Shown: positions 14,895 through 19,462, numbered from the stretch's first letter. The stretch: 24,792 nucleotides of DNA from a virus (IMGVR_UViG_2648501235_000003:1-24792), one strand, 5' to 3'. Notes: generated from the letters alone by a model not told the origin. Made by a program: numbers and translations.

Positions 14895-15952
14895 TTTCCG
14901 CCTCCAGCATCCCGTCCCCGTTTGGCAGCCAGCGTCCAGCCAGATGCATGCGCATCCCCCGGTTTATCGGCGGTCATACTGTTGCAGTGCCACAGCGAGC
15001 CCCCCCACGTCACCGTATCGCCGGGGTGGTAGGTTTCACCGGCTCTGAACACTCCGCGGTAGAGCATCACCGGCAGGGAAAATGTTTTTTCCGTACACTG
15101 GCCACTGCTCTGCCGGATCACCACAGAGAACAACCGCTCACCCGTCATACTGACGTCAATATCCGCCACCCCGTCAACCAGGCATTCCCATCCCCGCATC
15201 CCGTGCGTTTTTTCATACGCCCGCCAGAGTCCTCCAAGGTGTGTGGCATACGTGCCCCGGGGAAAGGATTTTTGATCGTCAATGGCGGGGAGCACTTCCA
15301 GTGCCGTGGCATCACGCCCGTCCTGCGGAGCCGGCAGGGCATTCACCGCCTCCAGAACCGCCTTCCGCAGAACATCGGGATCGAAGTCACGACCATCACG
15401 CGGAACGGGAATATGGCTTACAGCCTCTTTCACCATCTGCTCAAGCATCGGACGCACATCATCGGGGGTGATACTTTTGCCGTCCGCCGGTACCGGAATT
15501 CTCCCGACCGCATCATTCACCGCCTGCTTCAGTACTTCCGGATCGTAATCACGACCATCGCGGGGAGCTGGAATATGGCCCACTGCCTCCGCCACCATCT
15601 GCTCAAGCATCGGACGCACATCATCGGGGGTAATACTTTTGCCGTCCGCCGGTACCGGAATATTCGCAACCGCATCATTCACCGCCTGCTGCAGTACATC
15701 CGGATCATAATCACGACCATCACGCGGTACCGGAATGGCCCCCACAGCGTCATCCACCATCGCCTGCAGAACCGGACGCACCTCATCCACCGTCACATGC
15801 TTCTGTAATACCGCCGACAGGGAAGTCAGTTTCTCTTCAAACGCTTGTGCCTGCGAGGCCATCTTCCCCTCAAATGTGCGCTGTAAATCCGCCAGCACCG
15901 TGGAGAATTCTTCACCCAGCGCACGGATAATGGACAGTTCACGCTCTGTCAT
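14891..15952 (-). CDS. Hypothetical head-module protein with three tandem 54-aa repeats
   Basis: 353 aa; ATG at 15952 overlaps the portal stop (ATGA); coiled-coil-like N-terminus, three repeats with motif IPVPRDGRDYDPDVL...AVNDAV...IPVPADGKSITPDDVRPMLEQMV, then a Trp/Gly-rich C-terminal domain. Confidence 0.7.
   Translation of the reverse strand: MTERELSIIRALGEEFSTVLADLQRTFEGKMASQAQAFEEKLTSLSAVLQKHVTVDEVRPVLQAMVDDAVGAIPVPRDGRDYDPDVLQQAVNDAVANIPVPADGKSITPDDVRPMLEQMVAEAVGHIPAPRDGRDYDPEVLKQAVNDAVGRIPVPADGKSITPDDVRPMLEQMVKEAVSHIPVPRDGRDFDPDVLRKAVLEAVNALPAPQDGRDATALEVLPAIDDQKSFPRGTYATHLGGLWRAYEKTHGMRGWECLVDGVADIDVSMTGERLFSVVIRQSSGQCTEKTFSLPVMLYRGVFRAGETYHPGDTVTWGGSLWHCNSMTADKPGDAHASGWTLAAKRGRDAGGGK
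15302..15787 (-). repeat. Tandem 162-bp in-frame coding repeats (about 3 copies)
   Basis: caccatctgctcaagcatcggacgcacatcatcggggg occurs at 15431 and 15593 (period 162 nt); a third, more diverged copy lies upstream. Confidence 0.8.
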
Positions 15953-17524: not shown

Positions 17525-19462
17525 TCAGCCGCCGGACGCACTGCCGTAGTTCACACCGGTGATCACCGCCACCGCCGCAGTACGGCGACGACGCCAGTTG
17601 ATCCAGCGCTCCGCACGGATGGCCACGCTGCCGGTCTGGAACATGGAAACCAGCTCCACCGGCGACGGTGTGGTGCTGTCGCCGCCCGGCTCAGACTGCA
17701 TTTCCAGTGACGCTTCACGGGACATATCCACTGCCACACCGCCGTCATCCGCCAGATAAATATCCGGGGCATTCACCAGCACCAGCTGGTCACCCACGTA
17801 CTGGGAGACAATCACCGGCAGCCCCTGGAAGGAGCCACCCAGCAGGGTCATGTCCGGGTATTCCTTCTGACCCAGCGCATTTTTACGCATGGACAGTGCC
17901 AGGGCATTGGTGCTGGACATCAGCCAGACCGCACCGGTGGGCTGCAGGTTTGCTGCCACAAACTGTCCAAACGCAGCCTCTGCATCCGCATCCGGGTTAC
18001 CGGTTGATGCCGTGCCCTTCACATCATGGGTGATGGACGCCGGGGAGACATCTGCCACTGCGGCTTTTTTCGGGTCCACAAAGTCTGTGTCCAGACGCGC
18101 CACCACCGCTTCTGCCAGCGCATTACGGACCAGTGCATCAGCAGCCGGACTGGAAAAACGGATCAATTCTTCCGTCAGTACCGCAATGGCCGACACCTTC
18201 GCATGACTGAAGGTGATGGATTCAAAATCAAACTTCGTCAGGGGTTTTGCCTTACCCTCACCCACCCAGCCGGCAGCACCGCCGGACACCTGGGCGTGCA
18301 CACGGATATTGAACGGCACCTGACGAAGTGCAGGGATCCCGCCCTGACCAAATCGCCCGATAATGGTCTGCGGACGCAGGTAATCAATAAAGTCCTGTGC
18401 GTATTCCTGATATTCAGACAGGCTGCCTGCCCACTGCGGGTCCGTGGTGGTCCCTGCCCCCACCGCCGATTTCAGGACATGATGCAGACGGCTGTCATCC
18501 GGATACTGACGACGGGCCACTTCCAGGGCTTCAGAGCGGACACCTTTAGCCGCGGCCAGTGATTTGGCAAAGCGGGCGAAACCAATCCCCTTCTCCAGTT
18601 TCTGCTCAACACGGATCACCGGCGCTGAAGCCACCGTGGCCACATTCCCGTTACCGGCCTGTTTCACCGGCTGTGCCGTGGCGGCCTTACTGGTTTCCAG
18701 TTCACGCAGACGCTTCAGGTGCGCATCCACCTGACGGATTTCCGCTGCGGTGTTGTCGTAGTGCTCTTCCTCTTCCACATCCAGTGTGCGGCCTTCCTCT
18801 GCGGCTTTGTTCATGATCTCCTCAAGGGAGGCTGCCAGAGCCGCACGCTTGTTTTCAAAACTTTTAATCTGTTCACCAGTATTCATTGCTGACTTTTCCT
18901 TATGAAAAGAGGTTATTGACTGTGCCGCAGCGCCGGCAGAAGATGCGATTTTCACCACCGGTTTCCGGTTGCCGGACGCGGCAGAAAACGGGCGGTCGTA
19001 AGATTTAATGGTCCGGATGGTGCATTCCGCATTCGCGGGCACGGTGACGGCAGACACCTCCATCAGTTCCCAGCGCAGAAAATGCAGTCCGCCTCCGTCC
19101 AGATAAGTGTATTCATGGGGCCGGAAGCCCACAGAAAGCCCCCTGACCAGCCCGGTCTTAATGGCAGCCCAGGCCTCATCCAGCCGGGCTGCCATCTGGG
19201 AGGGCATCCCCGGATCCGGCTTCACCAGCATTGCCGTGATTTCCAGCCCTTCGCTGACCCGGCGTACCGTACACTGCCCCACCGGGCGGGAATGGTCATG
19301 CTGCCAGAGAAACGGGATCGCACTGCCAAACTCCGCGCCCTCCGGCTCCAGGATGTCACCATCCCGATCCGGAGAAGGCGTTGACGCAATCCCGGTGATC
19401 ACCCGTTCATCCTCACTGAAGGATTTCACCGTCAGCAGGGAACAGGCCCGTTTAAGAGTCAC
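17525..19462 (-). CDS. Prohead protease - major capsid protein fusion (HK97-like)
   Basis: 645 aa; N-terminal about 160 aa has the HK97 prohead protease pattern (ITGIAS...FLWQHDHSRPVG...GLSVGF...EVSAVTVPAN), then a coiled-coil linker and a capsid-like C-terminus; GTG start at 19462 with AGGAGG 5 nt upstream. Confidence 0.85.
   Translation of the reverse strand: MTLKRACSLLTVKSFSEDERVITGIASTPSPDRDGDILEPEGAEFGSAIPFLWQHDHSRPVGQCTVRRVSEGLEITAMLVKPDPGMPSQMAARLDEAWAAIKTGLVRGLSVGFRPHEYTYLDGGGLHFLRWELMEVSAVTVPANAECTIRTIKSYDRPFSAASGNRKPVVKIASSAGAAAQSITSFHKEKSAMNTGEQIKSFENKRAALAASLEEIMNKAAEEGRTLDVEEEEHYDNTAAEIRQVDAHLKRLRELETSKAATAQPVKQAGNGNVATVASAPVIRVEQKLEKGIGFARFAKSLAAAKGVRSEALEVARRQYPDDSRLHHVLKSAVGAGTTTDPQWAGSLSEYQEYAQDFIDYLRPQTIIGRFGQGGIPALRQVPFNIRVHAQVSGGAAGWVGEGKAKPLTKFDFESITFSHAKVSAIAVLTEELIRFSSPAADALVRNALAEAVVARLDTDFVDPKKAAVADVSPASITHDVKGTASTGNPDADAEAAFGQFVAANLQPTGAVWLMSSTNALALSMRKNALGQKEYPDMTLLGGSFQGLPVIVSQYVGDQLVLVNAPDIYLADDGGVAVDMSREASLEMQSEPGGDSTTPSPVELVSMFQTGSVAIRAERWINWRRRRTAAVAVITGVNYGSASGG

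Follow-up and report, generated by a model that had tools for sequence, protein, structure and literature searches.

The question of how a maturation protease is targeted to the procapsid has been solved for HK97, lambda, and the herpesviruses by routes other than the one considered here. In lambda (C/Nu3) and the herpesviruses (UL26/UL26.5), a long product carries the protease on the N terminus of the scaffold, a shorter and more abundant product is made from an internal in-frame start, and the protease is delivered by co-assembly. The HK97 record has TerS, TerL, portal (gp3), protease (gp4), and major capsid protein (MCP; gp5) in this order, all as separate genes, with putative terminators flanking gp4-gp5. 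Salmonella phage Gifsy-2 has a ClpP-type protease and a lambda gpE-like coat protein, at the canonical position after the portal. Its capsid gene is described as tripartite, a fusion of protease, scaffold, and capsid (Effantin 2010, as cited in PMC12315714). In small actinophages, one gene encodes the capsid maturation protease, the scaffold, and an HK97-like capsid subunit, according to PMC7302621; such fusion genes are also found in PMC9671004, PMC9753647, and PMC12760985, with gene 5 of the Microbacterium cluster EE phage BurtonThePup as an example and clusters AN, AX, FE, CW, DM, EL, AU, and AW as further cases. Protease-capsid fusions are already a recognised class (PMC7302621; PMC12315714).

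The window analyzed here, a stretch of 24,792 nucleotides of viral DNA, carries on its minus strand TerS, TerL, a 645-aa open reading frame (ORF), a 73-aa ORF, a 454-aa portal, a 353-aa repeat protein, and HK97-type connectors, in this order (Table 1), with TerL directly upstream of the 645-aa ORF. These genes form the head-assembly block of an HK97-like, lambdoid cos prophage of the Stx-phage type. The closest described relatives are phage 1717 (Stx2-converting, Pankowvirus), Stx1a/Stx2c phages, and EHEC PPompW prophages, whose DNA is 96 to 98% identical and which share gene content and gene order with the module. The phage 1717 annotation names the fusion gene "major capsid protein", mentions that it resembles a head maturation protease, and has a "portal protein" and then a "putative prophage portal protein" after it. 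Compared with this group, the locus has one 54-aa repeat fewer in the protein after the portal (353 versus 407 aa) and diverges by ~2 to 3%; apart from this it is essentially the same. A literature search on protease-capsid fusions and nested starts in the family of this module found no paper on the module.

Table 1. Features of the head module, with positions counted from the first nucleotide of the window
Feature	Position	Strand	Basis
Terminase large subunit, 553 aa	19526..21187	-	Pfam TerL_ATPase and TerL_nuclease
Terminator-like hairpin GAACCGC-TGCG-GCGGTTT plus T-run, in the gap between TerL and protease-capsid	19474..19501	-	terminator scan
AGGAGG Shine-Dalgarno (SD), 5 nt before the GTG of the 645-aa ORF	19468..19473	-	read from sequence
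Protease-linker-delta domain-capsid fusion, 645 aa, GTG start	17525..19462	-	Pfam S78 and Phage_capsid
HK97-type (S78) prohead serine protease domain, ~aa 1-160	18983..19462	-	PF04586 at aa 48-152
Internal SD-like TAAGGA, 10 nt upstream of the Met193 codon	18897..18902	-	read from sequence
Hypervariable linker, ~aa 161-192, former protease C-terminal tail and intergenic region	18887..18982	-	alignments
In-frame ATG (Met193), proposed start of a 453-aa delta-capsid protein	18884..18886	-	aligns with residue 1 of split MCPs
Delta (scaffolding) and HK97-family capsid domain, aa 193-645	17525..18886	-	TIGR01554, PF05065, predicted helices
Conserved hairpin GCGGGA...TCCCGC just after the capsid stop, AGGAGG before it	17489..17510	-	RNA fold z=-2.1
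Conserved 73-aa ORF between capsid and portal	17259..17480	-	PHROG 829, E=5e-37 (category unknown function)
HK97-family portal protein, 454 aa, ATG start, complete	15949..17313	-	PF04860, TIGR01537
G5 run near the portal 3' end	15964..15968	-	window sequence
353-aa repeat protein	14891..15952	-	ORF list

A sequence-only reading of the window had placed a fusion of protease and capsid between TerL and the portal and had called this order non-canonical, on the ground that in HK97 and lambda the portal follows the terminase directly and protease and capsid are separate. The order is borne out by the ORF coordinates and the Pfam and NCBIfam domains, and the identities of the fusion and of the portal, which is a complete protein of the HK97 family, both stand in domain searches. 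The contrast with HK97 is correct because its record has the order and the separate genes given above; for lambda, in which gpW separates A from B and C/Nu3 form a nested pair, it is only roughly right. Furthermore, the order is non-canonical with respect to HK97 but is not a local oddity, as synteny comparison shows that it is invariant across a large prophage lineage. TerL, protease, capsid, and portal follow each other in every related locus examined (~110 in all, with no exception), among them all 80 metagenome loci and likewise the genome loci in which these genes were detected, and the lineage spans gamma-, beta-, and alpha-proteobacteria. The order is also that of Burkholderia phage vB_FUB47a, in which protease (213 aa) and MCP (445 aa) have a gene each. 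The fixed order of the lineage is TerS, TerL, hairpin, protease, capsid, hairpin, small ORF, portal, (repeat protein), and connectors; compared with HK97, a hairpin-flanked protease and capsid cassette lies upstream of the portal and not downstream. The families of protease, capsid (with an N-terminal delta domain), and portal are the same as those of HK97 gp4, gp5, and gp3, connectors similar to gp6, gp7, and gp10 are present, as is an HNH next to the terminase, and the hairpins flank the fusion gene as the putative terminators flank gp4-gp5.

The head module is 97 to 98% identical to that of Stx1a-, Stx2c-, and Stx2a-converting phages and was found in 1,252 of 5,426 complete E. coli genomes; no complete RefSeq E. 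coli genome exceeded 98.0% identity to it. The same fused ORF and the same order are carried by 93 phage records, Stx-converting phages included. A fused protease-capsid gene ahead of the portal is hence a common and already catalogued module of Stx-type E. coli prophages, neither rare nor new: the feature was read correctly, but since the module is present in annotated Stx phage genomes and fusions are a recognised class, the reading adds nothing beyond them. PGAP names TerL of a 98%-identical locus "terminase large subunit". Two other labels given by annotation pipelines are misleading, as the 645-aa product is simply called "phage major capsid protein" and the intact portal "frameshifted". 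Stx1a, Stx2c, and some Stx2a phages carry this module, and therefore knowledge of its assembly is relevant to the production of toxin-phage particles.

Protease and capsid reside in a single ORF, as the earlier reading had it, with Pfam Peptidase_S78 and Phage_capsid both matching; TIGR01554 and TIGR01543 match as well, and PHROG 617 covers the full length (2.3e-259). The GTG start, which that reading had given as apparent, is confirmed by the AGGAGG upstream of it and by an ATG at the same position in other genera (MTLKRAC...), and GGAGG or GGAG is kept before the full-length start in homologous loci. The protease, scaffold, and capsid modules form one uninterrupted ORF that is conserved in relatives. 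Homologues of 644 to 648 aa with 73 to 77% identity occur in many Enterobacterales, and of the 150 best representatives among 50%-identity protein clusters, ~144 are full-length fusions. Where a genome locus has both parts, they share one ORF in 23 of 29 cases, as they do in 77 of 80 metagenome loci. Because fusions of this length span the Enterobacterales and nearly all of those best representatives are fused in full, the fusion is selected and not accidental. Most members of the lineage, this locus included, have lost the protease stop codon. The NCBIfam model for fusions of this kind, NF045541 ("prohead protease/major capsid protein fusion protein"), gave 53.5 bits against a cutoff of 525, and the match was limited to the protease and scaffold part; by this measure, the 645-aa protein belongs to a different fusion family. 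PHROG 4523 ("major head and protease protein") matches the ORF weakly. The actinophage fusions come from other hosts and other lineages and have little sequence similarity to the ORF. Gifsy-2 is different in that a ClpP-type protease and a gpE-like coat follow the portal there, whereas an S78 protease and an HK97-family capsid precede it here.

PF04586 (Peptidase_S78) matches aa 48-152 with 33.7 bits (cutoff 21), and PHROG 80 ("head maturation protease") matches the ORF with 1.4e-40. TIGR01543 reaches 45.8 bits and is below its equivalog cutoff of 59; the domain is therefore a member of the S78 family and not an equivalog of HK97 gp4. In the alignment with HK97 gp4, H55 (LWQHD) and S110 (GLSVGF) stand opposite H65 and S114, the catalytic residues of that enzyme (MEROPS S78). 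Both are invariant in all aligned homologues and are the putative catalytic pair of the domain. A PDB sequence search with the protease domain gave chance matches only.

For the capsid part, PF05065 (Phage_capsid) matches aa 386-635 (52.7 bits, cutoff 24.2), and TIGR01554 (major_cap_HK97) scores 79.2 bits (cutoff 27.5) with model positions 3-355 covering aa 204-584; the best sequence match in the PDB is the major capsid protein 9d9w (E=7.9e-6). AlphaFold2 predicts two long helices (aa 195-222 and 229-261, pLDDT 75-81), which align with the delta domain of HK97 gp5. The model of the fusion, built from a 13-sequence alignment, has a mean pLDDT of 40.8 with the capsid part below 50 and is usable only for the protease core and the delta helices. 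Compared with HK97 gp5, an extra insertion of ~33 aa follows the delta domain. K169 of gp5 has a conserved counterpart in K406, but a conserved Asn in place of N356 was not found: the aligned column holds Ser, Thr, or Pro, an assignment that is tentative in an alignment of 20% identity. Chainmail crosslinking in this lineage is therefore doubtful.

Between the two domains, the linker (~aa 161-192) is the most variable and indel-rich stretch of the alignments, and a candidate start lies at its end. Met193 aligns with residue 1 of the separate MCPs of Burkholderia phage vB_FUB47a, Acidovorax, and Snodgrassella, and cluster representatives that consist of the MCP only start at query position 193-197. 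A start codon is kept in 63 of 63 non-duplicate metagenomic fused junctions (57 ATG, 6 GTG), counted in a search that took only ATG, GTG, or TTG near the anchor, found one at the expected offset in every locus, and does not yield independent events because the sequences are phylogenetically related. ATG or GTG is also present at this position in all fused genome loci. Among the 144 fused cluster representatives, 111 have Met in this column and most others Val, Leu, or a nearby Met, with few having none of the three near the junction. Where the residue is Val, its codon is GTG in seven of seven cases, compared with 29 to 57% of the Val codons in those genes.

The SD-like motif is kept at the TAAGGA position in fused and split relatives alike. 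The SD duplex has an energy of −5.4 kcal/mol or lower at 87% of the junctions and of −10 kcal/mol or lower at 21%, compared with 17% and 1.3% of background in-frame positions; about 5 of the 63 junctions have a poor SD. In Enterobacterales, raw SD energies at Met193 are about −5.6 to −6.2 kcal/mol, a modest strength that is not exceptional among the in-frame positions of a single gene, and in a ranking of raw SD energy along the gene Met193 did not come out on top, conserved G-rich motifs such as DDGGVAVDM scoring higher. This ranking was replaced by synonymous-codon resampling and a test of Gly-codon columns. In the resampling, the Met193 column ranked third of 634. The linker residues at the site vary among Enterobacterales (KEK, KGN, KGK, QGK, TGN, KEH), yet 15 of 17 sequences use GGA for the Gly there, a codon that accounts for 10% of all Gly codons and for no more than 25% in any of the 38 other conserved Gly columns, and Lys before Glu is encoded by AAG in every case. 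Furthermore, in one locus an in-frame TAA within this TAAGGA motif is all that parts the two genes. RNA structure near the internal start is weak (z=+0.68). A conserved in-frame start codon thus stands at the N terminus of the scaffold part, with an SD-like site that codon usage and resampling indicate to be maintained although its absolute strength in Enterobacterales is modest. Because the start codon is kept and the motif is held in place by unusual codons, we suggest that the gene is nested and encodes protease-capsid plus capsid alone. This conserved, hidden second start, from which the capsid protein alone is probably made, is the sole new point here.

In the model that we favor with some confidence, ribosomes would start at the GTG (19462) to make the full-length 645-aa fusion and also at the internal TAAGGA/ATG (Met193, 18886) to make a 453-aa delta-capsid protein. 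The two would co-assemble on the portal, fusion subunits would bring the protease into the procapsid interior via their own capsid domain, and the protease (H55/S110) would remove itself and the delta domains before DNA packaging. The use of the internal start, the stoichiometry, the cleavage sites, and the role of the hairpins are what we infer here. The system would be a capsid-fused analogue of the lambda C/Nu3 and herpesvirus UL26/UL26.5 pairs, and the conserved internal motif and ATG are consistent with the same logic; it would differ from them in its protease family (S78) and in that the delta scaffold is fused to the capsid protein, the putative short product being a capsid protein. On balance, we also hold it probable that selection keeps the nested pair in hundreds of proteobacterial prophage lineages, that the fusion is the minority subunit and the Met193 product the bulk capsid, and that one base change in the TAAGGA stop/SD motif suffices to turn fused into split forms and back. 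Should the internal start be used, the module would provide a simple and genetically tractable model of maturation-protease targeting, in which the protease is a capsid subunit itself, and would reveal how stoichiometry is set through gene fusion and nested translation.

It is imaginable, and we hold it to be possible but rather unlikely, that a single polyprotein is made, so that every capsid subunit is the 645-aa protein, protease and capsid are present 1:1, and protease and delta domain are cut off after assembly. The internal ATG and SD-like motif would then be a relic of the capsid gene from when it was separate, or be kept for protein-level reasons such as the delta N terminus or a cleavage site. 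The fused ORF is indeed intact and conserved, a strong AGGAGG or GGAGG precedes the full-length start in all lineages, the modest SD strength at Met193 in Enterobacterales fits, and by our own estimate the ~13 MDa involved can be accommodated sterically inside a T=7 prohead; furthermore, the passages on actinophage and Gifsy-2 fusions in PMC7302621 and PMC12315714 describe them as single genes and make no mention of internal starts. A relic, however, should decay over 38 to 54% identity, whereas start codon and SD-like motif persist in the most variable part of the protein, and selection at the protein level does not explain the codon signatures (GGA in most sequences, Val always as GTG, Lys as AAG before Glu). 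That fusion and odd order reflect the decay of a defective prophage, by loss of a stop codon or by rearrangement, or an assembly artefact, in either case without functional meaning, has a negligible probability. EHEC genomes are rich in defective lambdoid prophages, some copies of the module are disrupted by insertion sequences (IS629 in the terminase region of phage 1717, ISEc31 in CB9615), and the Arsenophonus copies are degraded; conservation effectively refutes this reading, with the E. coli genomes and phage records counted above, ~144 distinct fused protein clusters, the same order throughout the related loci, and invariant catalytic residues.

The portal raises a question of its own, as PGAP labels the portal and the downstream ORF of the 98%-identical locus as one "frameshifted" portal pseudogene, in which case the 454-aa ORF would be the truncated remnant of an 860-aa portal. 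PHROG 2271, a "portal" profile of 859 positions, spans both ORFs, and fusion across the junction is seen in many E. coli database proteins. Nevertheless, we consider truncation very improbable. The 454-aa ORF, in line with the portal assignment made from the sequence, covers the portal models completely (PF04860 at aa 54-382, model 2-321 of 321, 272 bits, E=6.9e-81; TIGR01537 portal_HK97, model 2-343 of 343, 355.9 bits versus a cutoff of 112), and HK97 gp3 has 424 aa. The portal stop and the start of the 353-aa ORF overlap as ATGA, which couples the two, and this split arrangement is conserved in ~20 loci of other genera, which have no poly-G tract. Fused database proteins read ...AMFRGDTEKMTEREL..., and back-translation of this peptide onto the window sequence is consistent with a single extra G, that is, G6 in place of G5. 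A programmed frameshift at the junction was considered and rejected because poly-G is found in the E. coli lineage only and the other genera keep ATGA without it.

The 353-aa protein consists of 54-aa tandem repeats (a 162-nt repeat, 2.7 copies, at 15357-15787) and a C-terminal domain with a weak, sub-threshold CBM5/12-like motif (CBM_5_12). This ORF and the 73-aa ORF were absent from the sequence-only reading. The 3' end of the 73-aa ORF overlaps the portal start by 55 nt, and 96 of 97 loci have a small ORF with a conserved N-terminal core of ~40 aa in this place; Pfam and NCBIfam gave no match to the 73-aa ORF.

Rfam had no match anywhere in the window. RNAalifold gave a weak consensus for the hairpins between TerL and protease because of loop indels; they are evident sequence by sequence, and the hairpin on the TerL side (19474..19501) is the central hairpin of the RNA fold. 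The stems differ in sequence, but the layout of hairpin, T-run, and SD before the protease start is shared by related loci that range from Enterobacterales to Acidovorax and Snodgrassella. The hairpins after the capsid gene have stems that covary in ~30 related loci (GGCGGGG/CCCCGCC, GCGGGGA/TCCCCGC, and GACGGGAGG/CCTCCCGT).

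Both proteins at the centre of this head-gene block are what the sequence-only reading had taken them for. In the 645-aa ORF, Peptidase_S78 (aa 48-152) and Phage_capsid (aa 386-635) match above the Pfam gathering scores, and the 454-aa ORF is covered by the whole Phage_portal model (E = 6.9e-81, Pfam); NCBIfam and PHROGs agree in both cases. The ORF list, in which every gene of this region of the window lies on the minus strand, and the domain matches bear out the order TerL, fusion ORF, portal, which is indeed unlike that of the HK97 record (TerS, TerL, portal, protease, major capsid protein [MCP], adaptor). 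The GTG start also holds, with AGGAGG 5 nt upstream and ATG at the aligned position in other genera. H55 and S110 of the fusion ORF are invariant and align with H65 and S114 of HK97 gp4, the catalytic pair of that protease (MEROPS), and the TIGR01554 capsid model begins, at model position 3, at aa 204. In an alignment at only 20% identity, the counterpart of the HK97 crosslink lysine (K169) is the conserved K406 (window about 18247-18245), and the column of HK97 Asn356 (about aa 516, window about 17917-17915) holds Ser, Thr, or Pro in the lineage; the latter suggests that capsids of this lineage may lack HK97-type chainmail crosslinks. As in HK97-like cos phages, where the HNH endonuclease cooperates with the terminase, an HNH gene lies next to TerS.

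Features of the head-gene block, in 5' to 3' order on the minus strand
Feature	Position in window	Strand	Remark
Rz lysis protein	5' of TerS	-	
HNH endonuclease gene	22038-22403	-	directly upstream of TerS
TerS	upstream of TerL	-	Terminase_2
TerL, 553 aa	21187-19526	-	
Terminator-like hairpin and T-run	19474-19501	-	between TerL and AGGAGG/GTG of fusion ORF
Fusion ORF, 645 aa	19462-17525	-	GTG start; Peptidase_S78 + Phage_capsid
Met193 codon	18884-18886	-	in-frame ATG, proposed internal start
GC-rich hairpin	17489-17510	-	directly after capsid stop; conserved in about 30 related loci
73-aa ORF	17480-17259	-	PHROG 829
Portal, 454 aa	17313-15949	-	Phage_portal, whole model
G5 run	15964-15968	-	about 20 nt before portal stop (ATGA stop/start overlap at 15949-15952)
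353-aa ORF (post-portal protein)	15952-14891	-	after portal
54-aa (162-nt) tandem repeats	15357-15787	-	within 353-aa ORF
gp6-like connector, head-closure protein, gp10-like protein, gp17 tail completion protein	3' of 353-aa ORF	-	
HK97-like major tail protein, tail chaperones, tape measure protein	after gp17 tail completion	-	
Lambda-like M, L, I, and J, then Lom and tail fibre	last in block order	-	

The fusion is far from confined to this virus. The 3.5-kb segment occurs in 1,252 of 5,426 complete E. coli genomes (23%), in up to seven copies per genome, and 93 phage records are 97 to 98% identical to it, mostly Stx1a-, Stx2c-, and Stx2a-converting phages and PPompW prophages. Stx2c phage 2851 and BP-4795 are among the phages that carry the module. 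Neither the complete RefSeq E. coli genomes nor the phage records held a match above 98.0%, and therefore the source carries a slightly divergent copy of the module. Full-length fusions of 644 to 648 aa with 73 to 77% identity are found in Salmonella, Enterobacter, Klebsiella, Serratia, Pantoea, Kosakonia, and others, and a search through the complete set of 1.84 billion cluster representatives gave 12,326 matches, among the best 150 of which about 144 are full-length fusions (38 to 54% identity). This distribution rules out a decayed prophage gene; judged from these comparisons, the fusion is a large, selected family. The flagged feature is thus correct but already present in annotated genomes, under differing names: PGAP calls the gene "phage major capsid protein," Japanese Stx-phage records "phage prohead protease," and Stx2-converting phage 1717 (genus Pankowvirus), which has two "portal" genes after it, "major capsid protein" with a note on head maturation protease similarity. 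Such fusions have also been described in the literature for actinophages (PMC7302621) and Gifsy-2 (Effantin 2010, cited in PMC12315714).

Within the fusion, a hypervariable linker rich in indels (about aa 161-192) separates the conserved protease core from a conserved block that opens with Met193-Asn-(Ile/Thr)-(Ala/Gly)-Glu-Gln-Ile-Lys. The junction peptide MNTGEQIKS is identical in one metagenome locus (L073). In vB_FUB47a, Acidovorax, and Snodgrassella, whose MCP is encoded separately, the first residue of that protein aligns exactly with Met193, and MCP-only representatives begin at query positions 193 to 197. The codon is ATG in every fused genome locus except that of Reyranella, which has GTG, and is preceded, at the spacing seen in relatives with separate genes, by a purine-rich, SD-like motif (TAAGGA in the window, AAAGGA in most Enterobacterales, and GGAGGG in GC-rich hosts). 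The linker amino acids vary here (KEK, KGN, KGK, QGK, TGN, KEH, KEG, EEG), and the nucleotides are preserved. GGA encodes the Gly of the motif in 15 of 17 sequences; in these genes, it accounts for 10% of Gly codons overall and for no more than 25% in any of the 38 other conserved Gly columns. The Lys preceding Glu is encoded by AAG without exception. Such codon preferences favour selection acting on the nucleotides themselves. In the enterobacterial versions, the SD has a modest absolute strength that does not stand out within a single gene, and a synonymous-resampling statistic placed the Met193 column third of 634, not first.

Eighty additional metagenomic loci yielded 63 non-duplicate junctions, and a start codon stood at the expected offset in all 63 (57 ATG and 6 GTG, with only canonical start codons near the anchor scanned). 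Val at the junction was encoded by GTG in seven of seven cases, versus 29 to 57% of Val codons there. Anti-SD duplexes of −5.4 kcal/mol or below were found at 87% of junctions versus 17% of background in-frame positions, and those of −10 kcal/mol or below at 21% versus 1.3%. In one locus (L062), the genes are parted only by an in-frame TAA that itself lies within the TAAGGA motif, and therefore a single base can separate the fused and split states. Among 144 fused 50%-identity cluster representatives, the junction column holds Met in 111 and Val, Leu, or Ile in 15; most others have Met within a few residues. All of these sequences are related to one another, so that none of the counts represents independent events.

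We propose that both starts of the fusion ORF are used, giving the full-length fusion (predicted at about 69 kDa) and a 453-aa product (about 48 kDa) that would begin with fMet-Asn-Thr-Gly-Glu. In this scheme, the full-length fusion would serve as a capsid subunit with the S78 protease attached to its delta domain, at the N-terminus that faces inward, and the bulk of the shell would be supplied by the 453-aa product; upon assembly on the portal, the protease would then cut off both itself and the delta domains. By alignment with HK97, the maturation cleavage is predicted to fall between about aa 280 and 340. Such a two-start scheme resembles lambda C/Nu3 and herpesvirus UL26/UL26.5, but here, the scaffold belongs to the capsid protein itself. 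The main alternative is a single polyprotein that delivers protease and capsid domain at a ratio of 1:1. It is sterically feasible, and the descriptions of similar actinophage fusions (PMC7302621) and of the Gifsy-2 fusion (Effantin 2010, cited in PMC12315714) are worded in terms that suit it; however, it leaves the codon-level conservation at the internal start unexplained.

Among cultured phages that do not belong to the enterobacterial group, Burkholderia phage vB_FUB47a is the closest (39% identity). It has the gene order of the window (TerS, TerL, protease [213 aa], MCP [445 aa], a 58-aa ORF, portal, connector), but its protease and MCP are separate genes 13 nt apart. The genes detected kept to one order, (TerS), TerL, protease, MCP, (73-aa ORF), portal, (post-portal ORF), connector, throughout 80 metagenome loci and the genome loci, which span Enterobacterales, Proteus, Arsenophonus, Halopseudomonas, Candidimonas, Acidovorax, Snodgrassella, and a Burkholderiaceae MAG; the Reyranella contig stops short of the portal. 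Hence, a broad lineage has this non-canonical arrangement as its fixed gene order. A literature search, with most subscription papers outside its coverage, returned no paper on this lineage-wide order or on the conserved internal start.

The hairpin and T-run upstream of the protease start recur, with different stem sequences, in related loci L005 to L033, from Enterobacterales to Acidovorax, Snodgrassella, and Candidimonas. At the equivalent site upstream of gp4, a putative terminator is annotated in HK97, whose gp4-gp5 pair is flanked by such terminators. Since hairpins likewise flank the fusion gene, the difference from HK97 may be read as a swap of the portal gene with a hairpin-bounded protease and capsid cassette. 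The post-capsid hairpin, whose stems covary (GGCGGGG/CCCCGCC, GCGGGGA/TCCCCGC, GACGGGAGG/CCTCCCGT), has GGAGG before it and the ATG of the 73-aa ORF after it, with about 27 to 36 nt from SD to ATG; it could be a terminator, an mRNA-stability element, or a split RBS in which the SD is brought near the start codon. The 73-aa ORF, always located between capsid and portal, belongs to a PHROG of unknown function, had no Pfam or NCBIfam match, and consists of a conserved N-terminal core of roughly 40 aa (M.KIRYL..THD..PGD....A.VL..L.KAEY) followed by a charged tail that varies; at its 3' end, the ORF shares 55 nt with the start of the portal gene.

PGAP treats the portal and the downstream ORF as one frameshifted pseudogene, and many E. 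coli database proteins do run on across the junction, reading ...AMFRGDTEKMTEREL... Back-translation of this peptide onto the window sequence is consistent with G6 in place of the G5 run, which would join both ORFs into roughly 860 aa. Other genera, in about 20 loci, lack the poly-G tract; there, the portal ends ...LRG(L/I)L(T/R)K-stop, and the stop is overlapped by the downstream ATG as ATGA. This split form and the 454-aa ORF, which spans full portal models, speak against a pseudogene: as read from the sequences, the two ORFs were separate ancestrally, and the window has an intact portal. PGAP as a result labels the split, ancestral form "frameshifted." The tandem repeats of the post-portal protein (IPVPRDGRDYDP...PADGKSITPDDV...) vary in copy number, the protein having 353 aa in the window, 407 aa in Stx1a phages and phage 1717, and 572 aa in locus L012; in L017, it is fused to the portal in a single ORF of 1,248 aa. 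The protein had no PDB or Pfam assignment; its C-terminal domain carries a weak CBM5/12-like motif, and the protein may serve as a fibre or decoration at the head or neck.
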